Part shown: positions 1 through 51,636 of the stretch, piece after piece | Layout: every line of letters begins with the position of its first letter | Numbering within the stretch: the stretch's first letter is position 1 | Source: a virus | Taxonomy: Duplodnaviria > Caudoviricetes | Strand: one strand, 5' to 3' | Virus record (IMG/VR): IMGVR_UViG_3300025087_001438 | Span: 1 to 51,636 of that record | Length of the DNA: 51,636 nucleotides | Made by a program: the position numbers and the translations under genes | The notes under the pieces: generated by a model | Databases searched by the model: none | Told to the model about the DNA's origin: nothing | Seen by the model: only the letters and a program-made list of their open reading frames with translations

Positions 1-14
1 TAATTATTATTAGC
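1..14. repeat. 14-bp terminal direct repeat (circularisation overlap), left copy
   Basis: TAATTATTATTAGC at 1-14 is identical to 51623-51636; merging the two copies restores an open reading frame across the junction. Confidence 0.9.
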
Positions 15-404
15 CGAAGCGCCAGCCACATATAACTCATCCAGGTCGTTAAGCATTTGAAAGCGACAACTGGCTGGAGCGTCAGAAATAATGGTGGTCA
101 ATCCGCCGTTACTGTCCAAGTAGCGCAGTGTACCAGCCGTGCCATCGGAATCGTTACTGCCAACTATAATCTTGTCATTGGAGCCATAGCGGTAGACAAA
201 ACCGCCGTAGGTATCAGTACCATTGCCGACTACTGCCACCCGTTCATAGCCATCACGCCGCTTAGCCGAACCTATTTTGGCATTATAAATAGCATTTTTG
301 GTCAGTTTGACTTCGCTGCTTTTGCGTAGTAAGTGGGAGGTGCCAATTTGTAGCCCTCCCGATAAGTCCAGTTGGCGGTTAGGTCTGGGATTATTGCTGG
401 CCAT
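1..404 (-). CDS. 5' part of a tail hub/stabilisation-like protein that spans the origin (continues at 51622..50104; ~640 aa in total)
   Basis: ATG at 404 (MASNNPRPNRQLDLSGGLQ...) is open to position 1 and continues in frame as ...ANNNYLPLTNIDYTLSTSTTRNVYKA into the 50104..51594 ORF; it directly follows the adaptor gene. Confidence 0.8.
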   Translation of the reverse strand, partial: MASNNPRPNRQLDLSGGLQIGTSHLLRKSSEVKLTKNAIYNAKIGSAKRRDGYERVAVVGNGTDTYGGFVYRYGSNDKIIVGSNDSDGTAGTLRYLDSNGGLTTIISDAPASCRFQMLNDLDELYVAGASANNN

Positions 405-405
405 C

Positions 406-1611
406 TTATCTCCTGAAGGAGGTTATGGTCGAGTCTTGGGGTCGGAAACTGCGGGACGTGCCAGCATCCTTACGGTCAATGGTTTTGTAGCGGGCTTTTT
501 CACGCTCGTACAGCCCCAGATATTTAGCATCTTGGGTGATATTAGGGTCAGCTATAGCTCGTTTGCCCCAGTACATAGCTTTGCAGTAGAGCTTGTAAAT
601 ATAAGGGGAGGGAGTTTCAATGACATCACCCTCGGAGTCAATGACCGTAAAGTACTTCCAGTAGTGCAGGTAAAAGACATTAGAGCCAGTGGTTTTAGCG
701 GGGTGTGAGAAGCGGAAACGGTTAACCGAGGTATCTAAGGTCATGGCGACTGGTTTGTCATCGCTAACTGTTGTAGAACTGACAGTATTATCGGCGTACT
801 TGTTGCGGAACTCCTCCATTGGGATGACTGTGATAGTATTGGTTTCATCAATATCGGGGTCGGTAGAAGTATCTGTGAAGTTATAGTCCATGCGGTCAAA
901 CTTCCACATAGATTGTTTGCCATTAGAGTCAGTCGGGAAATTCAGATAGTTAAGGTTGATGGTTCGGGTATGGGCACTGCGGGCGTGTAAGAAAGTGTAT
1001 GGACGGGCTACATTAGCCTGTAAATCGTCATCAACATCGTTAAAGTAGCCCAGATATTCCCTACGGGTAACATGGACTTCTTGGGGGTCGCCAACCTCCT
1101 GTAATATCTCATCTATGATATTGCCGACTTGTTCCCGCCGCCAACCGGTGGCTTTAATCGGGTCTGACTGGGCGCTTTCCAAGGTTGATACGGAATGGTA
1201 GAAAGAAGTTTTGTAATAATAAGCCGAGGTGCCCTGGGTGTCGTCATAAATAGTCTGGAGGCTGAGATTGTCGACATCCATATTTTTGGTAACCAGCAAC
1301 GAGTAAGTACTGCCGCTATCGGTTGAACGGTAAAAGCGTACTTGGTCAAAGGTCATCACATAAACTGGGTCGTCGGCTGAGTGGGCGTAGAGTGTCGTGC
1401 CAACGGTCAGGGTCAGGTTGTCGGCATTGACGGCTGAAACGGTCACTATCTCAGCGGTTTCGGTGCCCATTTCACCAATCATAATCCGGTCATTGGCTGC
1501 AAAGCGGTCAGCGTTCTTGACGATTATGGAGGTGACGCCGACAGAGTAAGGATTGGCTAGGTAAGATTTTTCCCAGTGGGTAGTTTCGGCATTAAATACA
1601 TTTATCCTCAT
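406..1611 (-). CDS. Probable head-tail adaptor/connector-like virion protein with extra N-terminal beta domains
   Basis: 401 aa; helical C-terminal half (IIDEILQEVGD...YKLYCKAMYW...YEREK) resembles podovirus adaptors; lies before the tail-hub gene; preceded by the late motif. Confidence 0.55.
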   Translation of the reverse strand: MRINVFNAETTHWEKSYLANPYSVGVTSIIVKNADRFAANDRIMIGEMGTETAEIVTVSAVNADNLTLTVGTTLYAHSADDPVYVMTFDQVRFYRSTDSGSTYSLLVTKNMDVDNLSLQTIYDDTQGTSAYYYKTSFYHSVSTLESAQSDPIKATGWRREQVGNIIDEILQEVGDPQEVHVTRREYLGYFNDVDDDLQANVARPYTFLHARSAHTRTINLNYLNFPTDSNGKQSMWKFDRMDYNFTDTSTDPDIDETNTITVIPMEEFRNKYADNTVSSTTVSDDKPVAMTLDTSVNRFRFSHPAKTTGSNVFYLHYWKYFTVIDSEGDVIETPSPYIYKLYCKAMYWGKRAIADPNITQDAKYLGLYEREKARYKTIDRKDAGTSRSFRPQDSTITSFRR

Positions 1612-1641
1612 ATTTTAACTATTGCCTATCTAGTACTTTCC

Positions 1642-1656
1642 CACAATAGTCTGTTA
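1642..1656 (-). promoter_or_regulatory. Late-gene motif copy (TAACAGACTATTGTG)
   Basis: Includes the upstream TAA; 29 nt separate its TTGTGG from ATG 1611. Confidence 0.75.
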
Positions 1657-2517
1657 TCGCCATTGCCTAATAGCCCCTCGCGGGTCGGCATTGTTGATAA
1701 TAGTTTGGGGGTTGGAGTTGATGTCTATAAGCGTGGTGGAGGTGGAAGTACTAGAAGTAGATGTCGAGCTAGTCGAGGTGCTATTGGTCGTACTGGTAGA
1801 TATGGAGGTGGAGTTGGAGGTCGAGGTGCTAATCGAACTTGATGTGCTAGAGGTGGATGCGCTGGTGGTACTGGCTGAGGTACTACTGGTCGAAGTGGAA
1901 GTAGCATCACTGGCGATAAAAGTAGCTACTACGGCCGCATAAGTGTTACTACTGGGTCCAGTCCATTCAGCTTGGTACTGAGCTTGGGTAGATACGGTCT
2001 TACTTTCTATGGATAGGGGGTGGCCAGCGATATCTATTTGAGTATAGTTGGAAAAACCGCTGCCGACTCCAGTATCACCTGAATTGCCGCAAGTCACCCC
2101 GACGACCAGTTCATCGCCGTAACTGGTAACGGCTGTATAGCCGGAGGTAACAGGTGTTCCACCAGCGGTTTGACCACTTACTTTATCAAGCACTCCACTG
2201 GTCAAAAGTCCCGACCATTCTTCAACGGCAATTCCTACGCTGCTGGCTATCGAATACTCGATAGTAACGGTATGCCCCGCTCCCCCGACTATATTAGAGG
2301 CGTACCAGATTTCGGCTGTGTTGCCGCTGGCACCCGCCTGTTCCCGTGCTACGGCTCTGGTGAAAGCATTGCCTTTATTGTCGCTGACAGTGATAGTACC
2401 GCCACTGGCTGAACCTTGCCCCGCCGCTATGATTAAAGTATTACCATTAGTGGAGATGAAAGAGGCCGTAGTTTGGGGTGAGCCACCTGTTTTAGTAATA
2501 GTCTGGATAAGTGTCAT
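1654..2517 (-). CDS. Virion accessory protein: beta-rich head, Ser/Thr tract, short C-terminal peptide
   Basis: 287 aa; VSDNKGNAFT...IWYASNI beta-sandwich-like domain, then DATSTSTSS...TSTSTTLID. Confidence 0.65.
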   Translation of the reverse strand: MTLIQTITKTGGSPQTTASFISTNGNTLIIAAGQGSASGGTITVSDNKGNAFTRAVAREQAGASGNTAEIWYASNIVGGAGHTVTIEYSIASSVGIAVEEWSGLLTSGVLDKVSGQTAGGTPVTSGYTAVTSYGDELVVGVTCGNSGDTGVGSGFSNYTQIDIAGHPLSIESKTVSTQAQYQAEWTGPSSNTYAAVVATFIASDATSTSTSSTSASTTSASTSSTSSSISTSTSNSTSISTSTTNSTSTSSTSTSSTSTSTTLIDINSNPQTIINNADPRGAIRQWR

Positions 2518-3275
2518 CTGCTCACCCCTATAGTCGCATGAGGTTGGAGGTTGGTAATTATGCCACTGGTTGAGCTTGTGGAGGTGGAGTTGGAAGTTGA
2601 GCTAGTGGATTGGGAGGTCGACGAGGTTGAAATTGAGGTCGATAAGCTGGTAGACACCGAAGTGCTGGTGCTGGAAGTGGAAAGGCTGGAACTAGTTGAG
2701 GTCGTAACTGATACGGATGTGGTGGTACTGGTGGAAATTGATGATGACGTGGAGGTTGAAGTTGTGGCGTCGGTGTAATAAACAGTCATGCGGATGTGGT
2801 CGATATAGGCGGTAATCGTACCTCCTCCCGTAGGAGCCTGTTTGCGCTCAAATTCTGCGACAATACCATTTATGGTCGCTCCACTTGGAATGGTAAAACC
2901 AAAATTTGTTGCCTTTAGATAGTGGCTTATAGCTGTATCCACTCCGTCAGTCCAAACAGTTGCAATTACTACACCAAAGGTTGTGGCATTGATATCTGCG
3001 TCTGTCCAAGACATCCCCCACAGATTAGAGGAGCTACCAAAAGAAACATAAGCTTCAGTCAAGGACCAAGCAGTACTAGCGCTTTGGTCGGTACCACTGA
3101 TAGTCCCACCCTTGACAATTCTTATCGAATAATCTTTAGGGATAGCTTCAACAGAAAATACTGTGGCATAAGAGTCATCACTAGTTTGGGAATTGTTAGG
3201 ATTACTCCAAGTCTTTGTTCCAATATCAGCAGAATCAGCAGTCGTGCTCGGACTCAGTGGCCCCTGAGAAGCGAT
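2514..3275 (-). CDS. Virion accessory protein with Ser/Thr tract; probable non-canonical ATC start (ORF track starts at TTG 3062)
   Basis: Frame is open from 3290 to 2514; a GGAGG Shine-Dalgarno lies 8 nt before ATC at 3275, giving (M)ASQGPLSPSTTADSADIGTKTWSNP...; S/T tract at ~2565-2765. Confidence 0.65.
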   Translation of the reverse strand: MASQGPLSPSTTADSADIGTKTWSNPNNSQTSDDSYATVFSVEAIPKDYSIRIVKGGTISGTDQSASTAWSLTEAYVSFGSSSNLWGMSWTDADINATTFGVVIATVWTDGVDTAISHYLKATNFGFTIPSGATINGIVAEFERKQAPTGGGTITAYIDHIRMTVYYTDATTSTSTSSSISTSTTTSVSVTTSTSSSLSTSSTSTSVSTSLSTSISTSSTSQSTSSTSNSTSTSSTSGIITNLQPHATIGVSR

Positions 3276-3290
3276 GGTATTACCCTCCCC

Positions 3291-4553
3291 CTAATTATTC
3301 CAAACATTAAAAGACGGTATGGTGACTCTGGGTATGGTCATGTAATCAATTAGGGTGGTGGAGGTGCTGGAGCTTGTGGAGAGTGATGAGCTAGTCGAAC
3401 TAGTGGAGATTGATGTCGATACTGAGGTACTAGTGCTGGAAGTGCTGATTGAGCTGGAAGTTGAGCTGGTGGACAGCGAAGTCGAGCTACTGGTGCTACT
3501 GGTGCTGATAGAAGTCGACTGACTGGTAGAAATGCTGGATGACGTGGAACTGGTAGATATGGAAGTACTGGTTGAACTACTGGTACTGCTGGTACTGATT
3601 GACGTACTGATACTGGTCGAGATGCTGGAAGAAGTACTAATAGAACTAGAGGTCGAACTGGTGGAGGTACTGACAGAGGAACTGGTCGAGCTGGTAGAAA
3701 CCGAAGTGGACATTGACGTACTGGAGGTACTGATGGAGGTCGAAACAGATGAAGAAGTACTGGAAGTCGATGTGGAGATAGAGCTGGAGGTACTAGAGGT
3801 GCTTATGGAACTACTAGTACTGGAAGTGCTGATACTGGAACTAGTACTGGATGTTGAGATAGAGGTGGAAATACTACTGGAGGTGGAACTGGTGGAGATA
3901 GAAGAACTAGTAGAAATTGAGGAGCTAGTGCTAGAAGTACTAGTAGAGATTGAGCTACTTGTAGAGCTTGTGCTGATGGACGTACTAATCGAACTGGAAG
4001 TAGAGGAGGTGCTTATCGAGGTTGAGATACTGCTAGAAGTACTGCTTGTGGAAATTGAAGTGGAGGTGCTAGAAGTAGAGATTGAGCTGGATGTGGAACT
4101 AGTACTAGTAGAGATTGAACTCGACGTACTAGAAGTAGAAATGGAAGTGGAAATCGAAGAACTGGTTGACGATGTTGAGATAGAGGTGGAAATAGAGCTT
4201 GAGGTGGAAGAAGTACTTATTGAGCTACTAGTCGAGCTGGTGCTAATCGAACTGCTCGTACTGCTGGTACTGATAGAACTACTTGTGCTGGAGGTAGATG
4301 TAGAAATAGAAGAACTGGTACTGGAGGTGGAAATAGAGGTCGAGATACTCGAACTAGTTGAGCTGGTAGAAATAGACGAACTGGTACTGGAGGTGGACGT
4401 GGAAACACTGCTACTTGTCGAACTAGTGGAAATAGATGTAGAGCTACTAGTAGAAATTGATGTTGAACTTGATGTGGAGGTTGTTGTAGCATCCGCAACA
4501 TTAGCTGACCCTTGACCGAAGTATGGTTGGCCAAAATAATTTGAGCCAAACAT
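3291..4553 (-). CDS. Serine/threonine-rich repeat (mucin/SRRP-like) protein
   Basis: 420 aa; short MFGSNYFGQPYFGQG head, ~375 aa of SISTSSTSS-type repeats, C-terminal TTLIDYMTIPRVTI. Confidence 0.85.
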   Translation of the reverse strand: MFGSNYFGQPYFGQGSANVADATTTSTSSSTSISTSSSTSISTSSTSSSVSTSTSSTSSSISTSSTSSSISTSISTSSTSSSISTSTSSTSSSISTSSTSSSISTSSTSSSISTSSTSSSISTSISTSSTSSSISTSISTSSTSSSISTSTSSTSSSISTSSTSTSISTSSTSSSISTSISTSSTSSSISTSISTSSTSSSISTSTSSTSSSISTSSSISTSSTSSSISTSISTSSTSSSISTSSTSSSISTSSTSSSISTSTSSTSSSVSTSISTSSTSMSTSVSTSSTSSSVSTSTSSTSSSISTSSSISTSISTSISTSSTSSSTSTSISTSSTSSSISTSQSTSISTSSTSSSTSLSTSSTSSSISTSSTSTSVSTSISTSSTSSSLSTSSSTSTTLIDYMTIPRVTIPSFNVWNN

Positions 4554-4555
4554 GG

Positions 4556-5095
4556 CTACCTACTAGCTATGATAGAGTGTAGAGCGTTTTTATGAGCAGG
4601 GGTTAGATTAGTGCCATATGGAAGCACGCACCAGCTTAGAAATAGCTCAGTCCCGTCTTTTAGGGGAACTTTAACATTAGCGGTTGTCCCGTTACCAAAA
4701 GAGAAGTTATCTGGAAAGTCACCAATCGTTACTGGGCTGCCATCTTTTTTCTTGAGGCTTGGGCTGATATACACTTCCCTCGGTGACTGTTCTATACTCT
4801 CACTGACTATAGTTTCCTGTAGGTCTTGAGCTGTAACAGTTGTCGGGTCAAACGGTAAATGTTGGGTAGCGTGTTCATCACCAATACGCTTTTTGGCCTC
4901 AGCTAGAGTTTCTTTTTTAAGCGTCAGTCTATTAAGACCCTCTTTTTTATGTTGGATTTCTGAGCCGTATTGAGGATTGGGCAGTTGAGCGTGAGCAATA
5001 ATATCATCACGGATTTCCCCAGCGTAGCGACCCTTAGCAATTATCTTGCCTTTATCGTCCCTGATTGTTTCTTTTCCTTCAAAAATACAAAGCAT
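4556..5095 (-). CDS. Hypothetical protein
   Basis: 179 aa ORF with AAGGAG RBS, tightly packed in the operon. Confidence 0.7.
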   Translation of the reverse strand: MLCIFEGKETIRDDKGKIIAKGRYAGEIRDDIIAHAQLPNPQYGSEIQHKKEGLNRLTLKKETLAEAKKRIGDEHATQHLPFDPTTVTAQDLQETIVSESIEQSPREVYISPSLKKKDGSPVTIGDFPDNFSFGNGTTANVKVPLKDGTELFLSWCVLPYGTNLTPAHKNALHSIIASR

Positions 5096-5104
5096 AATTT
5101 CTCC

Positions 5105-5902
5105 TTAACTTACTGCAAAGGTATAAACGTGTAATTCATCAGCACCTAATGTTATAGCCCCATCTCCACTTATGGCCCTAATAATCACATCCGTGATTGT
5201 TGCACTTGGTTGGGCATCGGTTAATGTTGGGTTGCCCAATCCTGAACCAGCTGCTGCTACATTTCCTGTAGTAGCTGCGGCAACGCCCGAACCTTGGAGA
5301 TTATAATTAGCAATTCGTGGGCCTAACCAAAAGTTTGCGGAATGGGCTTCCGCTTGGTCGGTGGCAGTAGTTCTAACCAACGAAACAGAACTACCCGCCT
5401 CACCTATCACTGTAGTATTAAGTTTAACTCCAAAACCATTACTGCTTGCAGCGCCAGTTGTTCTCCTAACTGACACTAAACCAAAGATTGGAATATTTGT
5501 AGCTATGCTAAGTCCAGTAGCTGTCAATAAATCAACCGCTGTGGTGCTAGTAGTGGTAGCTTCGGTGGTATTTCCGCCGACCCGAGTTAGACCTTCGGCA
5601 TCGGTTAGAGTTTTAGCGGTAACCGTAGCCGCTATCTGGTCGCCTACTACAACTGAGCGAGCTGTAGAGCTTTCCTGCGCCCTAGTTATAGTAAAAGTAT
5701 CAGTTGAGATGGTCGTGACTCGGACTATTTCAGCATTGGTCGTTAGAGGCTGTGCCCCAGCAGGCCAGACGGTTGCATTAAAAGGCACAGTTGGAAATTT
5801 AGCGCCATCAGCGGCGGCAACTACTAATGAAGTTCCAGTAGTGGCTGGTGATGGGGCAGTAGCTACTGTTGAGTAAGCAAAGTTTTTATGCTGATCAGCC
5901 AT
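5105..5902 (-). CDS. Tail fibre/virion structural protein
   Basis: 265 aa, Thr/Ala/Gly-rich; N-terminal EIVRVT...DTFTITRAQEST is typical of fibre attachment domains. Confidence 0.6.
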   Translation of the reverse strand: MADQHKNFAYSTVATAPSPATTGTSLVVAAADGAKFPTVPFNATVWPAGAQPLTTNAEIVRVTTISTDTFTITRAQESSTARSVVVGDQIAATVTAKTLTDAEGLTRVGGNTTEATTTSTTAVDLLTATGLSIATNIPIFGLVSVRRTTGAASSNGFGVKLNTTVIGEAGSSVSLVRTTATDQAEAHSANFWLGPRIANYNLQGSGVAAATTGNVAAAGSGLGNPTLTDAQPSATITDVIIRAISGDGAITLGADELHVYTFAVS

Positions 5903-5935
5903 ATATTGTCAGTATGATATAAAAACAGAATAAAC

Positions 5936-5950
5936 CACAATAGTCTGTTA
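5936..5950 (-). promoter_or_regulatory. Late-gene motif copy (TAACAGACTATTGTG)
   Basis: Includes the upstream TAA; 32 nt to ATG 5902. Confidence 0.75.
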
Positions 5951-6898
5951 GAGGGGGGTGATGGTGTTTTCTGGCATTTTATAAATCTCACCGTCTTTGG
6001 GGCAAGTAGCAGTAAAACCGTCTTTGGTGAGCATAATCTCCTTGCACTTAGGGCATCTATAACCCCATATATCAAAGCCCTTACCCCACTTTTCATGGTT
6101 TTGGTTCCACTGCAACTCAGGTATTATTAAACTCTTTATATCTTCCTCATCTCGGACAGACTTGAACGAACTAGACCAGTGATGCCATACCCACGACCTA
6201 GTCGTACCGACACATCTATAGCCAAACATCCTTGCTCGGCAACTGTAATCATAATCTTCGCCTCCGCCTGGGTAATATCGTTCATCTAACATACCGACCT
6301 CTAAAAACTTGGCAGTATCAATTACTGAAGCGTACATCGTCACCCCGTCAATAACCGAACCTGGTTTAATGGTCAGATGTTCGTTTACATAATGTTCATC
6401 TTCAATAAGATGCCGCCAATCCTCGTCAGTATATTTATCTTTATAAGGGATGATGTCAAAGTCATCCCCTGATTCCCTGCCGACTGACCAATCCGCCAAT
6501 CTAATAGAGGCGGGGTTTACAATCATGGCGGGGGTAGTAGGAGTGGCTTCTTCAACTTTCCTGAAAGTTTCTATCACCCCATCCCACCAAGCTGGATGAA
6601 TTAGTTCCACATCGTCGTTCAGCATTAGAAAGTAAGGGGTATCGACTAATCTTATACCCAAGTTGGTTGCTTGGGCGAACCCCAAATTACCAGTGTAATG
6701 AACATCCGACTTTGGAGTTCTTATCACCATTAAATTTTTATATTGGTTTCGTAGCTTAGTAGCGTCTATACCGTTGATAGATTGGTCTATTATGTAGGTA
6801 TAGAAGATATTGTCCGTGTACTCGTACAGGGTTTGGAGCATCCGCTGTACGAGGTCTGGACGAATAATAGGACAAATTACGGTTAAAAGCTTAGCCAT
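5948..6898 (-). CDS. Glycosyltransferase family 2 (GT-A) with C-terminal Zn-ribbon-like motif
   Basis: LTVICP, NLGFAQATNLGI, LNDD, VGMLDERY..GGEDYDYS motifs; C-terminal CPKC...CPKD. Confidence 0.9.
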   Translation of the reverse strand: MAKLLTVICPIIRPDLVQRMLQTLYEYTDNIFYTYIIDQSINGIDATKLRNQYKNLMVIRTPKSDVHYTGNLGFAQATNLGIRLVDTPYFLMLNDDVELIHPAWWDGVIETFRKVEEATPTTPAMIVNPASIRLADWSVGRESGDDFDIIPYKDKYTDEDWRHLIEDEHYVNEHLTIKPGSVIDGVTMYASVIDTAKFLEVGMLDERYYPGGGEDYDYSCRARMFGYRCVGTTRSWVWHHWSSSFKSVRDEEDIKSLIIPELQWNQNHEKWGKGFDIWGYRCPKCKEIMLTKDGFTATCPKDGEIYKMPENTITPL

Positions 6899-7220
6899 TT
6901 TCGGGGGCTTTGTAGATAGCCTCCCCTTGATTGTACTTGAAAAGCTCTGCCTCTTCTACCTCTACCACATCGTCCATTATGAAACCCAGTGTATCTAGTA
7001 TTTCTGGCTTGGTAATCCACTGGCGGGTCTTGGCTACTTCGTCTATTAAATAAACCTTGTCTCCCCCTTGTTTTGTTCGGACTACTCGCTTGCCTTCCGG
7101 TAAAACTCGTGCTGGTTCAACAGTTCCTGTAACTTCTACAGTCGTACTATCTATTTCAACCCCTTCAGCAGCTAGTTTGTCTATTAGTTTATGTAATTGT
7201 TCTACGTCTTCGCGTGTCAT
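6891..7220 (-). CDS. Hypothetical protein with a VYLI-x(5)-RQWI surface-repeat-like module
   Basis: 109 aa; DKVYLIDEVAKTRQWITKPEILDTLG; overlaps both neighbouring genes. Confidence 0.6.
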   Translation of the reverse strand: MTREDVEQLHKLIDKLAAEGVEIDSTTVEVTGTVEPARVLPEGKRVVRTKQGGDKVYLIDEVAKTRQWITKPEILDTLGFIMDDVVEVEEAELFKYNQGEAIYKAPENG

Positions 7221-7699
7221 TACGAACCTCCTTTAATTATATTTAGATTGGCAAATTCGCCATGGTATTTAATTGCTGCTTTATTATATGCTCTGGCTGC
7301 CTCTTTCACATCATCAAATCTCCCTAAAAATATTGAAGAACTATTAGACCAAATACGGGCTATCCACTTATTTTGATGTCGGTATACGCCTTTGTAACCA
7401 GATTTATTATTTCGATTGGGTTTAGGTCTATTATGCTGGTTTTCGGCATGGGTACAAATACGTATTTCGGAGCGTCTATTATCTGTTCTAATGCCATGTC
7501 TATGGTCAACTTCTTCGCCTGGCTGGGCGTTCAAAAGCAAACGGTGCATTTTAATAATTTTCCGCCTGCCATTAATAATCTTATCAGTGATTGCATATCC
7601 ATCTTTATTTAGATGCCAGCCACCAATAGAGTTAACTAACTTTAAGTCCTTATCATCGACTAAAACTTTAGTCCCATTTTTGAGGACAACCTCAGTCAT
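7220..7699 (-). CDS. HNH homing endonuclease with AP2 DNA-binding domain
   Basis: VDHRHGIRTDNRRSEIR (HNH_3-type) plus SGYKGV...WIARI...LGRF...AARAYNKAA (AP2). Confidence 0.92.
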   Translation of the reverse strand: MTEVVLKNGTKVLVDDKDLKLVNSIGGWHLNKDGYAITDKIINGRRKIIKMHRLLLNAQPGEEVDHRHGIRTDNRRSEIRICTHAENQHNRPKPNRNNKSGYKGVYRHQNKWIARIWSNSSSIFLGRFDDVKEAARAYNKAAIKYHGEFANLNIIKGGS

Positions 7700-8666
7700 C
7701 TATAACCTCCTGAATTTTACTCATCATACTATCTAAAGTATACCCCCTATCTATTAAATACTGTCTATAGCTGATGGAATCATATTCTTGGCTAGTAATC
7801 TTATCTATGGCTTGGTCTATGGAATCCCATGTCAGACCGGGCCAGATATCATCAGCTCCAAAAAATCTATGGGGCACGACTTTAATACCCTTCGCCATTG
7901 CTTCAGCGATTGCATAAGAAAACCCTTCTTTCACAGAACCATGCAGAAGAAAATTTTTATCCTCTAGAAATTCGTCAACAGTTTTACCCTCTAAAAGAAT
8001 ATTAGTAAACTCTATATTTAAGTTATGATGTTCTACAAAATCATCAAAATATGCATACTCCCAGTTGGAGTCGCTTCGTTGTCCCAGCCAGTGAATCTTA
8101 TACCTTGGGTCTATTTGTTGAAGTTTCAAGATAACTTGTAAAAGTAGATGCGTTCCTTTAGAGTTCCATTTCTCAGAAACGATAGCTATATCAAAACCCG
8201 GACTACGCTTTTTAAACTTATAGCGACTTAAATCAACTCCACAGGGAATAGTATGAAACTTGGTTTTATCGGTCAATCCAGGTAGGTTAGCAATATTTGC
8301 GACCTCCCTTATATGATTGGCTATAAAAATAACATCATCCACTAAACTCCATCGAGCGGCATGTTGATGGCCTTGCCAAATCTCGATATCAATCGGTCTA
8401 ACGATAATTCTCTTATCTGATAAATCCATGTCGTACAAACTCCACGGTTTGTAATTGGCATTATCTGCCAGTAATGCTTCCCCTGGATTTGTGGCGGAAA
8501 CGATATTGTTATCAGCGGTGTCCATCCATATTAAATCTGCCCATTCATTAGCTAACTGAGGATTCCAGTATCTTTCCGTCTTAACTTCGTGTCCCTGTTT
8601 ACGCCACCAGTTAGCCATATCACTGGTAAATTTCCCGAAATATGGGTCTGTAAGAAGAATTTTCAT
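7692..8666 (-). CDS. Glycosyltransferase, GT-B/GT4-like
   Basis: IPCGVDL, KGTHLL and EGFSYAIAEAMAKG (EX7E) motifs. Confidence 0.88.
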   Translation of the reverse strand: MKILLTDPYFGKFTSDMANWWRKQGHEVKTERYWNPQLANEWADLIWMDTADNNIVSATNPGEALLADNANYKPWSLYDMDLSDKRIIVRPIDIEIWQGHQHAARWSLVDDVIFIANHIREVANIANLPGLTDKTKFHTIPCGVDLSRYKFKKRSPGFDIAIVSEKWNSKGTHLLLQVILKLQQIDPRYKIHWLGQRSDSNWEYAYFDDFVEHHNLNIEFTNILLEGKTVDEFLEDKNFLLHGSVKEGFSYAIAEAMAKGIKVVPHRFFGADDIWPGLTWDSIDQAIDKITSQEYDSISYRQYLIDRGYTLDSMMSKIQEVIDD

Positions 8667-9550
8667 AAAATCCCCTGTACTATGTTCAATAAATCTTCCA
8701 CCCGATTCTTAACCTTTAGTTCCTTTTGGGCATACTCGTAACCATGGGTGGCTAGATTTTCCCGGTCTTCGTCAGCTTCTAGCCAGTACTCAATACTTAA
8801 TAGACAGCTAGGTATATCGTAGAAATAACCAACATAGGAACGCAGAACACTACTAATCAAAGGCTGATAGCGATGGAGTACAAATCCCCCACAACACATG
8901 ATTTGGGCTGGTCTATCGCTCCAATATCCAGCCTCGATTGTATGGTCTATGGATAAGATTACTTTGGCTCTAGCGTATAGTTCTGGCAGACCTTCATCCA
9001 TTATTGGGGGGCGGACGTCTTTGAAGCCCTCCCAAGCATTAACCGAATGTATTACTAGATTAAACTTCTCATCTACGGCTTTAAGAGTTTCGTTTCTTTC
9101 AGTAGCAAAATCAAGATAACTTCCCGTAAAGAGCACATCTATGTCTTTCTCGATAGGGGTGGGATGTTTGTCTAGGAAACTAGGGGCGAAGTCTTGGCTC
9201 AGCCATTGCCAATTAGGGTATTTACTATCAGCTATACGTTTGGATAAGTAGAGGTCAGATTCTTTGACTAGGCGTTCGTGCCATTCTTGACCGTCTGCTT
9301 GGTAATCGTAACTCCAGTAGACAACTGGTATATTCAGTCCTGTGTGTAAGTCTCTTATAAGGTTCTCACCATATCCGTCCCATTGGGACATCAGAACAAA
9401 ATCATATCTTTCATTTAATATAGGTCGTTCCTCTCTCTGACATCGTACAACCTCATGCCCTAATTCCTCCAACGCATCAGAGATATGGACTTCGTCGCAG
9501 ATAGAATTATCCCAGCCTCTACCAAAGTTCCCAAAAAATACTATTTTCAT
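8663..9550 (-). CDS. Glycosyltransferase, CgeB/Glyco_trans_1_2-like
   Basis: DVLFTGS, LYARAKVIL, YWSDR...CGGFVL and R..LA..GYE motifs. Confidence 0.85.
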   Translation of the reverse strand: MKIVFFGNFGRGWDNSICDEVHISDALEELGHEVVRCQREERPILNERYDFVLMSQWDGYGENLIRDLHTGLNIPVVYWSYDYQADGQEWHERLVKESDLYLSKRIADSKYPNWQWLSQDFAPSFLDKHPTPIEKDIDVLFTGSYLDFATERNETLKAVDEKFNLVIHSVNAWEGFKDVRPPIMDEGLPELYARAKVILSIDHTIEAGYWSDRPAQIMCCGGFVLHRYQPLISSVLRSYVGYFYDIPSCLLSIEYWLEADEDRENLATHGYEYAQKELKVKNRVEDLLNIVQGIL

Positions 9551-10542
9551 GCTGTTGCCTCCCTAAAAAACTTACGCCAATTCCCTATATGATGACTCCA
9601 CTGCCAGTTTCGTAATATCTCATCTCGTCCTTTAGCTCCCATCTCTCTACGTTTGACTGGGTGGTCACGCATATACTCCAAGGCAGTTCGTAATTTATTC
9701 GTAAGTTGCTCCCCTTCGTTCTGAGGCCAGCGTTGAATATGGGGCGGGTCGGGTAATAACATAATGCCACCGCCTGCATCAGTAATATGATGGTCAATGC
9801 CTTGGTAGGTAGTAACAACAGGAATGCCGCAAGCTGCGGCTTCCAAGACAGGAAACGATAGCCCGTAAGAGTTATCTATTCTGACTAACACGTCCATTTG
9901 ATTATAAATATTAGGTAATCCAGACCAATACTTACCTCCGGCAACTACCCGTTTTTTGAACTCCATGTCTCCCAAAGGCTCTAAGTCTCCACCATTATTG
10001 ACCCAATTCTGAGGGAAAAACATCCATCTTATACCTGGCATATCATATAGGGGTTTTATACCTTCTATAATCTGTCTGCGAGGATTACCGTATGACCCCA
10101 CCACGCCGACGTGCAATAAATCGTCTTCACGTTTCATTTTAAAGGGTTGAAACAAATTAGTATCAATCCCAAATCTTACAGAGTGAAGCATTCGCCCACT
10201 AGCGTCCATAGCATCTACGACATCGGTGGCTGAGGCTAAATAGGCGGCTCTAGTCCAGTCTCCCTCCCCCGGTTCATACATAACCACAGCGACCTTGTGC
10301 TTGTACTTTTCCTTGTCCATAACCCCCCAATGAGAGGGTAATAAAGGTACTAATAAGTCGTAATCATCAGGATTGCGTGCAAATGGCGACTCTCTAGTAA
10401 GAAAGTCTTCATAAGGTGGGTAGGGAACTTGGGCTTGCTCTATAAAGAATTCATCTGAGAGGTAGCGGATTAAATACTCGTAGTGGGCTTCCATGTACCA
10501 GCCACCTTGTATCCCTGGGGGAATAAATAATATCTTTTTCAT
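9547..10542 (-). CDS. Glycosyltransferase, GT-B/GT4-like
   Basis: GIDTNLF, YNQMDVLV, PVLEAAACGIPVVTT, MGAKGR...W motifs. Confidence 0.9.
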   Translation of the reverse strand: MKKILFIPPGIQGGWYMEAHYEYLIRYLSDEFFIEQAQVPYPPYEDFLTRESPFARNPDDYDLLVPLLPSHWGVMDKEKYKHKVAVVMYEPGEGDWTRAAYLASATDVVDAMDASGRMLHSVRFGIDTNLFQPFKMKREDDLLHVGVVGSYGNPRRQIIEGIKPLYDMPGIRWMFFPQNWVNNGGDLEPLGDMEFKKRVVAGGKYWSGLPNIYNQMDVLVRIDNSYGLSFPVLEAAACGIPVVTTYQGIDHHITDAGGGIMLLPDPPHIQRWPQNEGEQLTNKLRTALEYMRDHPVKRREMGAKGRDEILRNWQWSHHIGNWRKFFREATA

Positions 10543-11133
10543 CTATTTTATCCCTCTAAATCTGAAATCATACTGGGGTTCGGCGTGTCCTAATTCACTA
10601 TCGTCCCCATGACCGAAACCGACAGGTATTTCCGTTATACTTTTAAAGCCCCGCTCTTCCAGTTTGAATCTCAGGTATTCTTTGGTATAACCGCACAGGT
10701 GATACTGCCCCTCGCCGTCGCTACCCGTAGTACCGTATAAAAGACCCATAACCCGATGCCAGGGCTGATTGTTGCCCGTAGGTGTGACGTGAACGGTTGG
10801 CATTAGGGCACAAGCCACCAAAAGGTCGGGTAATTCTATTTCCACTGTTCCGCCAGGTTTAAGGACTCGGTGGGCTTCAGCGATAGCCTGGGTGCCTTTT
10901 TCCATATCCAGGTGTTCCAAGACGTGAACCATTATTACTTCATCAAAGGTTTCGCTCTCGAAGTCTAATTTAACAGCGTCTCCATACAGCCATTTGGAGT
11001 CTTCGCTATCCACCCATTTATCGACTTCCCGCTGGTCGGTTAAGGGATTAGGAGAGCCAGGGTAGTAATACTTATCAACATTGTAGTAACCCCTGAGAGG
11101 CACGTTGCCCGCGCCCACATTGCAGCGTTTCAT
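10543..11133 (-). CDS. Class I SAM-dependent methyltransferase
   Basis: NVGAG, GDAVKLDF, HVLEH, RVLKPGG. Confidence 0.9.
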   Translation of the reverse strand: MKRCNVGAGNVPLRGYYNVDKYYYPGSPNPLTDQREVDKWVDSEDSKWLYGDAVKLDFESETFDEVIMVHVLEHLDMEKGTQAIAEAHRVLKPGGTVEIELPDLLVACALMPTVHVTPTGNNQPWHRVMGLLYGTTGSDGEGQYHLCGYTKEYLRFKLEERGFKSITEIPVGFGHGDDSELGHAEPQYDFRFRGIK

Positions 11134-11669
11134 TTAATCACCCTCACAATCTTATTACCAAAAACTTCTTTATTGTCTCCATGATATTCATCAATCCATT
11201 GTTTAGTTTCCTCGTGGTCATAATCATGATAGATAACTATCCCACCTTTTTTGACTTTAGGTATCCAGTTGAGAGCATTTTGCTTTATAGATTCGTAATC
11301 ATGATGAGGGTCTAAGAACAGTAAGTCTATTGGTATGGTCCAAAGGGCGGCAAACTCATCAGCGTCACCGTGGATAAAGAACCCTTTTTTACCAATACCA
11401 ATTAAACCATCCTTAATAGCAAACGGTCCCCTACCAATACTCTTTTCGTGTACCTGGACATCATTTATATCTATACCAATTAAATAGACACCTTCTTTAG
11501 CGTAGTGGTGGGCGACAGTCATCGACTTACCCTCATCGACACCAATTTCTAAATAGACTTGGTCGGGTTTCAGTTTACCGACTTCCTCTTTAAACACTTC
11601 CATTTCAGTACCGCCGAAGACTCCCTGAATGTTATCACTGATATATTTACTAAGCTCCCCAGGATTCAT
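11130..11669 (-). CDS. Class I SAM-dependent methyltransferase (Methyltransf_24-like)
   Basis: YLEIGVDEGKS, IDLLFLDPHHDYE, KKGGIVIYHDY; start moved to ATG 11669 (ATGA overlap with the upstream stop). Confidence 0.88.
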   Translation of the reverse strand: MNPGELSKYISDNIQGVFGGTEMEVFKEEVGKLKPDQVYLEIGVDEGKSMTVAHHYAKEGVYLIGIDINDVQVHEKSIGRGPFAIKDGLIGIGKKGFFIHGDADEFAALWTIPIDLLFLDPHHDYESIKQNALNWIPKVKKGGIVIYHDYDHEETKQWIDEYHGDNKEVFGNKIVRVIK

Positions 11670-23462: not shown

Positions 23463-23684
23463 TTAGACAGATGTAGTGGTGGAGGTCGAAGTACTGGTGG
23501 AAACTGAAGTTGAACTGCTAGTGGAACTGGTCGAGATTGAAGTTGAAGAACTAGTCGAACTAGTAGAAATGGAGGTGGAACTAGAGGTTGAAGTCGTGGT
23601 ATTTCCACCATGCCCACGCAAGCGAATGGTCGAATAGCCAGCGATTACACCAAACCATTGGCTGAGGTTGGCGGGCGAGGACAT
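23463..23684 (-). CDS. Small protein: ~28-aa head plus C-terminal Ser/Thr tract
   Basis: 73 aa; GGAGG RBS; ...GGNTTTSTSSSTSIS...TSTSTTTSV. Confidence 0.75.
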   Translation of the reverse strand: MSSPANLSQWFGVIAGYSTIRLRGHGGNTTTSTSSSTSISTSSTSSSTSISTSSTSSSTSVSTSTSTSTTTSV

Positions 23685-24108: not shown

Positions 24109-24948
24109 TTACGGCGTGGTCGTCGTAGATGTTGATGTTGAACTCGTGCTTGAGCTGGTGCTCGAAGTCGAGCTGGAAGTACTAGATGTAGAACTTGAAG
24201 TGCTGGACGTCGAGGTCGTAACCGTCGTGGTAGACGTAGAACTTGACGTAGAGCTGGTTGAAGTCGTAATCGAGTACTCAGGCACATCATTGAGCGTCGT
24301 GCCGTCTGACCAGTTATCGTAGTTGTAAGCGATGATGAGAGCCGTGGTGTTATTCGGCGTGGTTGCCGGAGTTACCAAGTTTCTCTCAACCGTGCCACTG
24401 GCTACGACAGTTGGTGCGTTTTGAAGTGTCAGAGCGCCATACGGCGTGGTACGCGAATATACCTTAACAGTGGTGTTATTCTGCCACAACCGATGGTTGA
24501 CACCTAACTTGTTGGTCGTGCCAACCGAGAAAGTAGCTGCCGTGGATAGTTGGGCGTCAATATTGACGCTAGTGACTGTCCTAAAAGCTAGGTTCCCATT
24601 GACTGCGCTCGAAGCGTCCGCCGCAAAGCGGAAAGCTTCAGAGATAGTCTTGCCTTCAACGTTAGTACCTGTAATGGTCACGACTGATTCTTGAATATCA
24701 CCAGTCGTGCCGCCGGGCGTAACGCTCAAAGCTCGTGGCACATCAGGGTCGGTTAGACCGGACGTAATCGTCTGGTCAGCGCCAACCGTAGCCGCTGTAG
24801 CCGCCAAGATTGCGGTGGACGTTCCTGCATTAACCTCATTGGAAGTATCGGTGTAAGCGAAAGTTGTACTATAGAGGTTCTTGTAGTTAAACGTACCGAA
24901 AGTGTGGCGACCCGCAATCGGCCAGGTCTTTGCTCTGTAAATTGCCAT
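24109..24948 (-). CDS. Head accessory/structural protein with C-terminal Ser/Thr tract
   Basis: 279 aa immediately after the major capsid gene; PDVPRALSVT...VTITGTN; ends ITTSTSSTSSS...TSTSTTTTP. Confidence 0.75.
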   Translation of the reverse strand: MAIYRAKTWPIAGRHTFGTFNYKNLYSTTFAYTDTSNEVNAGTSTAILAATAATVGADQTITSGLTDPDVPRALSVTPGGTTGDIQESVVTITGTNVEGKTISEAFRFAADASSAVNGNLAFRTVTSVNIDAQLSTAATFSVGTTNKLGVNHRLWQNNTTVKVYSRTTPYGALTLQNAPTVVASGTVERNLVTPATTPNNTTALIIAYNYDNWSDGTTLNDVPEYSITTSTSSTSSSTSTTTVTTSTSSTSSSTSSTSSSTSSTSSSTSSTSTSTTTTP

Positions 24949-27618: not shown

Positions 27619-27630
27619 AACAATAGTCTA
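27619..27630 (-). promoter_or_regulatory. Late-gene motif copy (TAGACTATTGTT)
   Basis: Includes the portal TAG; 29 nt to ATG 27588. Confidence 0.6.
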
Positions 27631-29845: not shown

Positions 29846-29861
29846 CACAATAGTCTGTTCA
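29846..29861 (-). promoter_or_regulatory. Late-gene motif copy (TGAACAGACTATTGTG)
   Basis: Includes the terL TGA; 30 nt to the portal ATG. Confidence 0.75.
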
Positions 29862-49370: not shown

Positions 49371-50111
49371 GTTGGCCGACTCTTGTAAAAGGAAAATCTT
49401 GATAGTCTTAGTACCCGTGCTGGCTGTCCCCCCAGTCGCCACGCAGGAACTTAGCAAATAGATGTTTGAAGCATCAGCATCCACTGAGTAAGTTATCCAG
49501 TTACAGACCGTGCCTGAAACATTAGTATAGGTTGTCCAGGGCAAAGAACGGAAACGGTTGGGTGTGTAGTCGGTGTCCTGGATGAAGGCCAAGACCGTTG
49601 GGATAAAGTTTAGCCCGTGGGCAATGCTGACAGTCGTTGAACCACTGGCGAATGAACCAGCGGCGGCCGTAGCTGTGGCGTCGGTAGTAGTGGCCGTAAC
49701 ACTGTCCACAATTTTGAATATATTTTGGTCACTGTTGAAGACTAGTTGGTCAAGTAATGCCGAAGTGACATCATAACCAGACTTGGCTATTTTCAAAGCC
49801 GTTGAACCATCAGTAAATCTGCCGAACTGGGCGATATTTACGCCACTGGTATCCAGTATCCTAAGACCGAACGCCCCATCATCCAGCTGGCCTTGGGTTA
49901 TAACTGCGTTGCCGTCATCATCAAAGTAAGTTTGTTTGCCAACTCTGCCTTCCATTAAGATATTTCTCATTCGGAAAGCATCACCAATAGCACCGCTAAT
50001 TTGGGCGCTGTCAAAACGTATCTGGCTGGAAGGCACAGTCGTTAGTTTGTCTACTGAGCGGCTTAAGAACTTATCTAAGCCCGAATCTTCGTAACTATAT
50101 TCATTATCCAT
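49368..50111 (-). CDS. Tail-associated structural protein
   Basis: 247 aa; LKIAKSGYDV...LVFNSD and IAHGLNFIP patterns are typical of tail proteins. Confidence 0.65.
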   Translation of the reverse strand: MDNEYSYEDSGLDKFLSRSVDKLTTVPSSQIRFDSAQISGAIGDAFRMRNILMEGRVGKQTYFDDDGNAVITQGQLDDGAFGLRILDTSGVNIAQFGRFTDGSTALKIAKSGYDVTSALLDQLVFNSDQNIFKIVDSVTATTTDATATAAAGSFASGSTTVSIAHGLNFIPTVLAFIQDTDYTPNRFRSLPWTTYTNVSGTVCNWITYSVDADASNIYLLSSCVATGGTASTGTKTIKIFLLQESAN

Positions 50112-51636
50112 TGACCGTTACCTCAGCTAACGTCCACCAAGTCGTTATCCCGTTCCAGACCCCTGGGTCGCCGACCTCATTATGGACAAACTTAAAGTCA
50201 ATATCCCGCCCCTCGATAATTTCCCCGCCAGTTGGGAACAATAATTTCTCCACGTTCTTATTTACTTGGCCTAGAGTCCTGAAAGCTCCCCCATCAATGG
50301 AGTATTGTAATTGAGCGCCTCTGGCATTTTCCGAGTCGACCAAGACTGACAAGTAGCGTTTGGTCTGGTCGGTACCAAAATTATTCCTGCCTAGCTGAAC
50401 TTCCATCGGTATGGGGTCGACATGGTCGCGGTTAGTCGTTTCATCACGAAACAGATTGCCTAGCTCATCAGTGAAGTACGGTTTGGTGTAGCCATGCATA
50501 GTGTGGTTGAACTGGAAACGGAACTCCCGCTTATGTTCCTCAGTCCACCAGGCGTTAAGGTCAAAGTCGTAACACAAGCGGTAGACTTTTTTGGCTGAAA
50601 CGGCAGTTGTAGTGGATGTGGAGGTACTGGAAGTCGAAGATGAAGTCGTGCTGACTGAGGTGGAACTAGTCGAGGTAGTTATGGTCGTAAACGAACTAGT
50701 ACTAGTAGAAGTGCTGGAAGTCGAAGTGCTGGAGGTCGAGCTGGATGTAGAGCTGGTGCTAGTAGACGAAGTGGAGGTGGAGGTTGTTACGCTTTCTAAG
50801 GGTAACAATTCGCCCACCGCCACTTTATACACCCGACCAACTGCGACAGCTGAAGCTTTAGGGAAATTGGTCTGGTTAATAGCTCTGATGTAGGGGTCGA
50901 TGGCTCTTGACAGTAATTGGAGTTGGCCAGTATTGTCGTTATAGGCCCAGACACCAGTGGTATGTAGCCAGATAGTCCAGGAGCCGATATTTTGGATGGT
51001 TTCGTGCGATACACAGCCGATTGTTTCGGAAACGGTAATCAGATTAGCCCCGTCCCATTTTAAGAAAGAGTTTTTAGTGAACAGGAACAGCCGGTTGTTG
51101 TTCTTACCCCAACCAGTAAACTCCGGTTTGGCTTCACGGCCTGGTGGTACTCGTTCCCAGTCAGCCGTTTCGGGAGTCTTGTAATCGGTGTTCCAAAAGC
51201 GTGACAGCTTGCCTTTAGTGTCGGTCAGCCAGATTTCATCGTTGTCTTTGACATTCAGGGTGGCCATCTCAAAGCTGAAGCGGTTGTTCTTTTTATCAAC
51301 AGCTACGACGCTCAAGCCGGTAACCAATCGGGCTTCGGTGCCACTTGAGTAAATATCCAGCTGCATACCGGCTTTGATGTAGCGTACCGAATCAACCCGT
51401 ATATTTTGTAGTAGTCCCGCCTGGTCGGTCTGGACTTGGGTGATAAAACCCAGCGGTGGTGAGGACTTATAAAACCGGTCAAAGTAATACTTACCATTGA
51501 CATAGCAGTTGATAGCGTACAGTTCCCCATTATACTCAGTGATGAACTTGGAGGCTGGAGCTTTATAAACGTTGCGGGTGGTAGAAGTACTCAAGGTGTA
51601 GTCAATGTTGGTCAGGGGCAGATAATTATTATTAGC
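50104..51636 (-). CDS. 3' part of the tail hub/stabilisation-like (P22 gp10-like) protein, with an internal Ser/Thr tract
   Basis: Beta-propeller-like repeats (LFLFTKNS, IGCVSHETI, GVWAYN); S/T tract at ~50605-50787; N-terminus lies across the origin at 404. Confidence 0.7.
   Translation of the reverse strand, partial: ANNNYLPLTNIDYTLSTSTTRNVYKAPASKFITEYNGELYAINCYVNGKYYFDRFYKSSPPLGFITQVQTDQAGLLQNIRVDSVRYIKAGMQLDIYSSGTEARLVTGLSVVAVDKKNNRFSFEMATLNVKDNDEIWLTDTKGKLSRFWNTDYKTPETADWERVPPGREAKPEFTGWGKNNNRLFLFTKNSFLKWDGANLITVSETIGCVSHETIQNIGSWTIWLHTTGVWAYNDNTGQLQLLSRAIDPYIRAINQTNFPKASAVAVGRVYKVAVGELLPLESVTTSTSTSSTSTSSTSSSTSSTSTSSTSTSTSSFTTITTSTSSTSVSTTSSSTSSTSTSTTTAVSAKKVYRLCYDFDLNAWWTEEHKREFRFQFNHTMHGYTKPYFTDELGNLFRDETTNRDHVDPIPMEVQLGRNNFGTDQTKRYLSVLVDSENARGAQLQYSIDGGAFRTLGQVNKNVEKLLFPTGGEIIEGRDIDFKFVHNEVGDPGVWNGITTWWTLAEVTVNG
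51623..51636. repeat. 14-bp terminal direct repeat, right copy
   Basis: Identical to 1-14. Confidence 0.9.

Follow-up and report, generated by a model that had tools for sequence, protein, structure and literature searches.

We analysed the virus record IMGVR_UViG_3300025087_001438 from IMG/VR as a whole (51,636 bp, CheckV 99%; hereafter the window), with the focus on three adjacent genes, P1, P2 and P3, whose proteins each combine an N-terminal head, a serine/threonine (S/T) tract and a short C-terminal peptide, here called the tail peptide. The three fibre genes are co-directional and lie between tail-fibre genes and a head-to-tail adaptor gene, and the stop and start of P2 and P1 overlap. 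The locus contains the following features.

406..1611, minus strand: head-to-tail adaptor of the SU10 type (PF24175), 401 amino acids (aa), directly downstream of P1
1654..2517, minus strand: P1, 287 aa
2514..3275, minus strand: P2, probably 253 aa
3291..4553, minus strand: P3, 420 aa
Listed between the tail-fibre-like gene and the three fibre genes, minus strand: open reading frame (ORF) of 179 aa
5105..5902, minus strand: tail-fibre-like protein, 265 aa (phrog_8469, E 1.4e-11, with only the N-terminal part matching), between the island and P3
5948..23418, minus strand: glycosylation island, 17 kb

P1 starts with a head of two beta-sandwich halves (aa 1-202), followed by a tract of 60 aa (aa 203-262; 1732-1911; 87% S+T) and a tail peptide of 25 aa, LIDINSNPQTIINNADPRGAIRQWR (aa 263-287; 1657-1731). 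In P2, a head of about 168 aa precedes a tract of 70 aa (approximately 2565-2774; 84% S+T) and a tail peptide of 16 aa, GIITNLQPHATIGVSR (2517-2564). P3 carries a 22-aa aromatic/glycine head, MFGSNYFGQPYFGQ... (4488-4553), on a tract of 378 aa (aa 23-400; 3354-4487; 88% S+T), and ends in a 20-aa tail peptide, LIDYMTIPRVTIPSFNVWNN (aa 401-420; 3294-3353). All features that an earlier note on this DNA quoted for the shared architecture of the three genes are thus present in the sequence, and the stalks given there as about 55, 65 and 375 residues measure 60, 70 and 378 aa. Reading the N-termini of P1-P3 (MTLIQTITKTGG, (I)ASQGPLSPS and MFGSNYFGQ) revealed no hydrophobic signal sequence, and searches of P1-P3 and nine relatives against Pfam, PHROGs and NCBIfam assigned no family.

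The extent of P2 required correction. Starting from the first canonical start codon (TTG at 3062), the gene had been taken to encode 182 aa with a 98-aa head, which was not upheld. The P2 frame is open up to 3290, and the protein aligns from residue 1 with its orthologue in the relative L005, whose TTG corresponds to the ATC at 3275-3273 of the window. This ATC stands 7 nt behind a strong Shine-Dalgarno sequence, GGGGAGGG; the L005/L012 orthologue has TTG at the same codon, and the nine residues following the start are identical between the window P2 and the L005 orthologue. The 170-aa head including the 71 extra residues was predicted by AlphaFold2 (AF2) with a predicted local distance difference test score (pLDDT) of 97.3, and the chance of 72 unconstrained codons staying open is about 3%. 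The open frame, the alignment, the Shine-Dalgarno sequence and the folding of the head indicate that P2 most likely has 253 aa (2514-3275) and that the apparent gap at 3063-3290 is coding. The ATC may be a non-canonical start or reflect a recent start-codon change.

To place the three genes among relatives, we used adaptor homologues with 42-95% identity, which were found on 7 viral contigs and 15 metagenome contigs. Loci reaching at least 1.3 kb upstream of the adaptor were counted (n = 15), together with one partial locus. The same head-stalk-tail plan was present in the gene or genes ahead of the adaptor in 15/15 loci as well as in the partial one; with copies taken into account (L015 equals L006, L020 is close to L008 and L012 to L005), these represent about 12 distinct phages. 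Among the relatives, head length varies between 8 and about 890 aa and tract length between 16 and 1270 aa, and each genome holds one to four such genes, in some loci with an ordinary collar-domain tail fibre in between.

Heads and tail peptides assort INDEPENDENTLY. In L005/L012, whose adaptor is 95% identical to that of the window and whose P1 and adaptor DNA is about 84-85% identical, the identical 20-aa tail peptide of P3 sits on a 615-aa protein with a 318-aa head. This 318-aa head has a counterpart with 37% identity (E 2e-63) on a 610-aa S/T protein of G005, which is the complete genome of a phage from a distant clade (capsid 39% and adaptor 24% identical); there the protein terminates in another peptide. 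Two of its neighbours in G005 have a common end, GSIYR[LI]PR, which is G005's own. The plan in 15/15 loci, the same tail peptide on a 22-aa and a 318-aa head, and the G005 head with another tail peptide give strong support to the proposal that heads are interchangeable on S/T stalks. In a comparison of window positions 1-7300 with L005, the stretch from the last glycosyltransferase gene to the P3 stalk has been replaced: the window has the 265-aa fibre-like gene, the 179-aa ORF and the 22-aa head there, and L005 the 318-aa head.

The P3 stalk is under protein-level selection for a periodic S/T peptide. Its 21 copies of STSSTSSSI are encoded by 21 distinct DNA versions with a mean nucleotide identity of 0.57, and the non-S/T residues are spaced by 9 (21 times) or 4 (13 times). 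All six Ser codons are in use within the tracts, and Tandem Repeats Finder (TRF) returned weak repeats only; together with the scrambled DNA under a constant peptide, these results ruled out DNA slippage as the origin of the tracts. The same retention of peptide repeats over scrambled codons speaks against a low-complexity artefact, in which the S/T frames would be no genes at all or shadows of the opposite strand. The plus strand does carry long mirror ORFs rich in E, V and L over the tracts. The heads, however, fold at pLDDT 91 and 97, and ORFs, tract ends and tail peptides are conserved across relatives with 42-95% adaptor identity, which makes an artefact extremely improbable.

The tripeptide DAT, reported earlier to precede each tract, stands before all three tracts of the window, but as a family feature it failed: it was found at 0/17 junctions in relatives, which read VGAT, SAPT, AGTT, SATT, AATT and others. 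DAT was ruled out as a processing or recognition motif because it is missing from relatives, and as a product of DNA-level gene conversion because the three window tripeptides use differing codons. Across the family, the stereotyped feature is the tract, with TT(T)STS at its start and STSTT at its end. At both the P1 (aa 203-206) and the P2 junction, D-A-T of the window faces V-G-A-T of L005/L012 (L005 8577-9440 and 7831-8580), a parallel change at two paralogous positions with differing codons.

The heads of P1-P3 are unrelated, as had been described: those of P1 (pLDDT 91.4) and P2 are all-beta by AF2, and that of P3 is a short aromatic/glycine peptide of 22 aa. Sixteen bacterial or metagenomic proteins at E ≤ 1e-3 make up the family of the P1 head, and the domain occurs in them singly or in tandem, in some cases with He_PIG or fn3. 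For the P2 head, the family is large and unannotated; it numbers 161 proteins at E ≤ 1e-3, most of them near 180 aa in length, and its look-alike clusters are 88-100% viral. Structural neighbours (VIA) of the P1 head, with Z scores of 8.1-7.0, included a protease C-domain and generic jelly rolls such as the head of the lactococcal Tuc2009 receptor-binding protein and a TNF-like lectin; the P2 list was made up mainly of CBM32, discoidin and fucolectin modules (Z ≤ 5.9). Both lists are at background level and serve as leads only, and no Pfam carbohydrate-binding or lectin family was assigned to either head. The NYFGQPYFGQ head of P3 (4488-4553, minus strand) recurs in L010 (7312-8655), in both cases on a long S/T stalk, and L008 (212-847) has a similar short head rich in glycine and tyrosine, MLGGFYLGGYYPG. 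This short peptide with the YFGQ motif might be either a small, sticky head or another docking peptide.

Some further features of the P2 head were observed. The strongly conserved segment SHYLKATNFGFTIPxGATIxGIxVExER lies late in the window P2 head (2766-3275) and early in the L005 head (7831-8343); both segment orders occur in the family, as if a beta hairpin had been circularly permuted. Fusions to Hint/intein-type domains are seen in some members (P0019, P0040, P0055 and P0063). The domain was also present in 55 loci from metagenome-assembled genomes (L027-L081), which are taxonomically very mixed; 22 carry the label Patescibacteria and 7 are archaeal (Micrarchaeota, Iainarchaeum, Woesearchaeota, Nanoarchaeota and others). 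These loci may hint at the hosts in which carriers of the domain live, but no host of the present phage was drawn from them, since many may be mis-binned viral contigs.

We then compared the tail peptides. The alignment of 18-19 distinct tail peptides revealed a core, TT-[LI][LIM]D-x3-[IHKL]-P-[RK]-x-T-[IS], in which the Pro is invariant and followed by R/K in most rows. A second PRGxIR unit often follows the core, and the peptides, 16-61 aa long in the family, finish in a basic/aromatic end (WRLS, RQWR, RRRLR, KLRIK). A leave-out profile built from 15 tail peptides of other loci was searched against the 815 frames of the window, and the P3 and P1 tail peptides ranked first (E 3.2e-6) and second (E 1.3e-3). 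The claim that all three genes end in similar peptides therefore stood for P1 and P3, which are family members by profile, and not for P2, whose tail peptide went undetected. With a self-trained profile and the 4303 frames of all loci, the matches at E < 0.01 were solely C-termini of S/T proteins. The earlier note had named a lack of conservation of the C-terminal peptides in homologues as grounds for abandoning its interpretation; that comparison was run here, and the tail peptides proved conserved.

A search of 1.84 billion representatives with the tail profile (A7, 40 positions), which is too short to map the range of the family, gave two matches at E ≤ 1e-3. One of them, P0138, is a new true member: a protein of 1235 aa with a P1-like N-terminus, an S/T tract of about 600 aa and the tail peptide TTLIDINMHPRVHI...RRRLR. 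The other, P0137, was rejected as repeat junk. The tail peptides of P1-P3 contain no LPXTG motif, and ten family proteins gave no match to sorting signals in NCBIfam (E ≤ 0.01), where hmmscan easily misses short signals; by inspection, the tail peptides lack the hydrophobic helix of sorting signals of the PEP-CTERM and LPXTG type. A single complex prediction that combined the tail peptide (A5), the adaptor (A1) and residues 1-410 of the nozzle-like protein (A6) scored 0.00 and 0.01 against a mark of 0.32, which carries no weight either way.

Besides P1-P3, the window holds three more S/T-tract proteins, P4, P5 and a nozzle-like protein.

3..404, minus strand: nozzle-like protein, N-terminal 134 aa, downstream of the adaptor; this gene runs on over the record ends
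50104..51636, minus strand: nozzle-like protein, C-terminal 510 aa, with an internal S/T insert at about 50590-50802
23463..23684, minus strand: P5, ORF of 73 aa, a 28-aa head with a C-terminal S/T tract and no tail peptide
24109..24948, minus strand: P4, 279 aa, adjoining the major capsid gene; a globular part with a free C-terminal S/T tract (aa 226-278) and no tail peptide
25005-25937, minus strand: major capsid protein (phrog_371)

P4 homologues end in STSTTT[LATV]P(V) in 4/4 records searched and in 9 further loci; a pattern search of viral contigs with the P4 head found nothing, and the homologues were obtained via the capsid gene. The nozzle-like insert of about 70 aa (50590-50802, minus strand) lies between ..VGELLPLESV and KKVYRLCYDFDLNAWW and is present in 11/11 aligned homologues. 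The nozzle-like homologue of L005 is a single 640-aa ORF, and the window copy is split only by the record ends. In a more distant clade (L101 and L103-L105), proteins of 100-160 aa have the P4/P5 design.

The glycosylation island contains 10 glycosyltransferase (GT)-like ORFs (two of them weak), 6 methyltransferases, an enzyme of the GDP-mannose-4,6-dehydratase/epimerase family, a DegT-type aminotransferase and an HNH-AP2 endonuclease. Phage-encoded GTs are thus found in the same genome as their candidate substrates. The island gene nearest the fibre genes is the following.

5948..6898, minus strand: GT-A-like enzyme with a C-terminal Cys4 ribbon

Homologues of this enzyme (56-73% identity) occupy the same position in 9/9 loci reaching that far, and in 5 of the 9 directly adjoin the first S/T gene. 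Its comparison with PDB sequences gave noise only (KRas, E about 0.1), and its NCBIfam rows were sub-threshold. ORFs resembling HNH-AP2 homing endonucleases stand at differing sites, in the window inside the island (7220-7699, minus strand) and in L005 between P1 and the adaptor (9459-9944).

To assess the link between tracts and enzymes, we examined capsid-gene neighbourhoods of the best 80 capsid-gene relatives, counting the 48 with at least 2.9 kb downstream and scoring a GT as present at a Pfam E ≤ 1e-5. An S/T-tract ORF followed the capsid gene directly in 12/48 neighbourhoods, and 9/12 of these had a Pfam GT. Two more of the 12 had a homologue of a 435-aa GT-B-like ORF, and L098 had none in its stretch. 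A GT was present in 1/36 of the S/T-negative neighbourhoods (L124); another, L116, has a sulfotransferase and an epimerase. The co-occurrence of S/T tract and GT was significant (Fisher P = 1.2e-6), in loci that are related and represent few independent events.

The enzymes and all three kinds of tract come and go together, as the pattern in L095, L106 and G007 indicates. In L095 (capsid 56% identical) and L106 (45%), the P4 homologues stop (..NDNPAYGV and ..NDNPNYGF) where others begin the tract, and no GT lies within 6 kb. L106 is part of G007, a complete genome bounded by terminal repeats, in which the whole record has 0 GT2 and 0 GT1 matches, compared with 5-6 GT2 and 1-2 GT1 matches in each of three S/T-positive complete genomes. 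G007 has no S/T tail on its P4 homologue, no nozzle insert and no S/T fibre. Its pre-adaptor protein (L168 = G007:C1:7000-19600, reverse ORF 6698-8266) consists of a head, a shaft of about twenty 13-aa TRTITGNARI repeats where the others have the S/T stalk, and an unrelated C-terminus, and the tail profile gave no match in this region. The idea that the stalks are glycosylated thus gained indirect support, in that S/T tracts co-occur with GTs and G007 lacks both.

O-glycosylated tracts are the simplest reading, because a periodic S/T peptide is selected and the tracts depend in evolution on a cytoplasmic glycosylation pathway; we consider it likely that the enzymes of the island glycosylate the S/T tracts. 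Since the tail peptide is the sole conserved part outside the stalk that tracks the lineage while heads exchange, it may act as the anchor, with the head as displayed cargo, although for the anchoring role itself the balance is about even. We propose that P1-P3 are phage-glycosylated, mucin-like appendages of the virion anchored by the C-terminal peptide, a reading that in its entirety we hold to be true with no better than even confidence. The cytoplasmic GTs would O-glycosylate the stalk and turn it into a stiff, protease-resistant, mucin-like rod. The C-terminal peptide would attach the protein to some conserved component of the particle, probably at the neck or tail, given the position of the genes between the tail-fibre genes and the adaptor. 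The head would be exchangeable, either a beta-sandwich as in carbohydrate-binding modules and receptor-binding heads or the 22-aa aromatic/glycine peptide of P3; the stalk length would determine how far the head stands off the particle, and the head may serve in first-contact adhesion to host or environmental glycans. At about 0.25 nm per residue of a glycosylated tract, the fibres would measure roughly 15-100 nm.

Several observations weigh against this reading. The tail peptide of P2 was unlisted at E ≤ 100 among the 815 window frames with the leave-out profile; a self-trained profile gave GIITNLQPHATIGVSR an E of 0.57, and a by-eye likeness (II-x3-QPHATI) remains. Foldseek returned nothing at E ≤ 1e-3 for the P1 and P2 heads. 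Phage fibres are normally anchored at the N-terminus. In P4, P5 and the nozzle-like protein, S/T tracts occur without a tail peptide, so that attachment through a globular part, N-terminal or internal, is feasible in this same phage. The P2-head family consists mostly of free-standing viral proteins of about 170-190 aa, any attachment of which would have to do without this tail peptide.

The last three points also favour the reverse polarity, in which the N-terminal head would sit on the particle and the glycosylated stalk with its cationic/aromatic peptide would point outward as a sticky end for anionic envelopes. P4 and P5 of the same phage combine an N-terminal globular part with a free C-terminal tract, and some tail peptides end in basic clusters (RIKRIKLRIR, KRFKLRIK, RRRLR), as this orientation would have it. 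However, close relatives keep the tail peptide while their heads are unrelated (22 aa vs 318 aa), head sizes span 8 to about 890 aa, and one head is found with two tail peptides in two lineages. Domains as different as these are unlikely to fit one fixed site on the particle, and the conserved module that tracks the lineage is the expected anchor. The reverse orientation is therefore unlikely.

A further point against C-terminal anchoring is that the tail peptide, the S/T tract and the GT island are inherited as one package, with G007 lacking all three, so the tail peptide could serve glycosylation. As a recognition ('follower') peptide it would recruit the priming GT or an assembly chaperone to long S/T stalks and would not be a structural anchor. 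The presence or absence of tail peptide, tracts and island together fits this function, as does the conserved GT-A-like gene (5948-6898) at the fibre-proximal end of the island in 9/9 loci. P4, P5 and the nozzle-like protein, however, have the same stereotyped tracts without the tail peptide, which is therefore not needed for marking a tract, and P1-P3 would be left without any attachment module. We judge a follower function quite doubtful.

Finally, P1-P3 might be no virion parts but proteins released at lysis or acting in the infected cell, for example as decoy or coating glycoproteins; the missing annotation in Pfam, PHROGs and NCBIfam would allow for this. The embedding of the co-directional genes in the structural module, the P2/P1 stop-start overlap, the same tract type inside the nozzle-like and capsid-adjacent proteins and the lack of signal peptides make this very improbable.

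Serine-rich repeat adhesins of the Fap1, GspB and SraP type present a variable binding region on a Ser-rich stalk, with adjacent cytoplasmic GTs and a C-terminal anchor motif. The window resembles them in its tracts of 84-88% S+T and in the 10 GT-like ORFs that share their strand and lie no more than 20 kb away. In contrast to them, P1-P3 have no signal peptide, accessory Sec genes or LPXTG motif; the repeat is STSSTSSS[IV], compared with SASx-type dipeptides in the adhesins, and the carrier would be a phage particle, whereas the adhesins sit on a cell wall. Fungal adhesins of the Als, Flo and Epa type join an N-terminal lectin-like head, an O-glycosylated S/T stalk and a C-terminal anchoring signal. 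They follow the same three-part logic, but are glycoproteins of the eukaryotic secretory pathway with a glycosylphosphatidylinositol anchor and show no sequence relation. T7-type fibres dock at the adaptor-nozzle junction and have an N-terminal anchor, a trimeric coiled/beta shaft and a variable C-terminal receptor-binding part. As in that type, the appendage genes lie beside the adaptor and nozzle genes, and one end of the protein is conserved and the other variable; here, in contrast, it is a short C-terminal peptide that is conserved, and a low-complexity S/T tract forms the shaft. P1-P3 lack the conserved N-terminal anchor of a canonical tail fibre, their N-termini being unrelated, and match no PHROG or Pfam fibre family.

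In actinobacteriophages, a few enzymes reportedly modify capsid and tail-tube subunits of siphoviruses (work attributed to Freeman et al. 2023, Cell Host Microbe). As cited in two papers (PMC12582341, PMC13313380), phage-encoded GTs and methyltransferases are taken to glycosylate the phages' own structural proteins. Virion glycosylation in actinobacteriophages is the nearest published phenomenon. The window differs in having about 18 sugar-pathway genes, mucin-like stalk proteins, a nozzle-like insert, a capsid-adjacent tract and a podovirus-like genome. In Mimivirus, a virus-encoded sugar-nucleotide pathway including an aminotransferase, together with methylation, decorates the surface fibres. 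Mimivirus is, however, a eukaryotic giant virus with different fibre proteins and without modular head-stalk-tail genes. The glycosylated fibrils of giant viruses are covered by a review (PMC9614988). Full-text searches of the literature turned up no account of fibre genes with S/T stalks or of the present group of phages.

We tentatively suggest, with somewhat less confidence than for the anchoring itself, that this lineage has independently reached the design of an adhesin on a glycan-coated stalk known from Gram-positive and fungal cell walls. The 17-kb island would build a custom glycan from partly methylated amino-deoxy sugars, the tracts would extend to at least six structural proteins, and the fibres would have a polarity opposite to the usual one, plugged in by the short C-terminal peptide. 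Heads of any kind, from a 20-aa aromatic peptide up to a multi-domain, lectin-like array of 890 aa, would be swapped by recombination in the codon-scrambled stalk. Glycosylation of phage particles has been recognised recently and, as far as found, involves few enzymes acting on capsid and tail-tube proteins. Here the substrate can be read from the sequence as stereotyped tracts in three protein contexts, the enzymes are adjacent, and natural controls lack both; the function and targeting of phage glycans hence become directly testable. The head-stalk-tail genes further suggest a simple, portable rule by which arbitrary binding domains are hung on a particle via a 20-aa peptide, with relevance to host-range evolution and to phage display or engineering in the laboratory.

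The remaining structural genes of the window were identified as follows.

27628-29814, minus strand: portal
29859-31376, minus strand: terminase
In the listed order between portal and major capsid protein, minus strand: scaffold-like acidic protein

The adaptor matched PF24175 over aa 162-382 (E 2e-9; 38.6 bits with a cut-off of 27), which places it in the SU10-type family, and has about 160 additional N-terminal residues ahead of this domain. An association of this extension with fibres carrying the tail peptide was considered, but the G007 adaptor is also long (390 aa), which argues against it. In tblastn searches the adaptor matched 0/50,697 phage records and nothing in the 80 capsid loci, and megablast of window positions 1-12000 against phage records gave no match. 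Capsid identity to any cultured phage reaches 33% at most, and on this evidence no cultured relative exists. The structural genes lie nearly all on the minus strand in a T7-like order, and with this order and its SU10-type adaptor the phage is an uncultured, podovirus-like one. The two record ends have 14 nt in common (1-14 and 51623-51636), and this overlap indicates that the genome is circular or circularly permuted.

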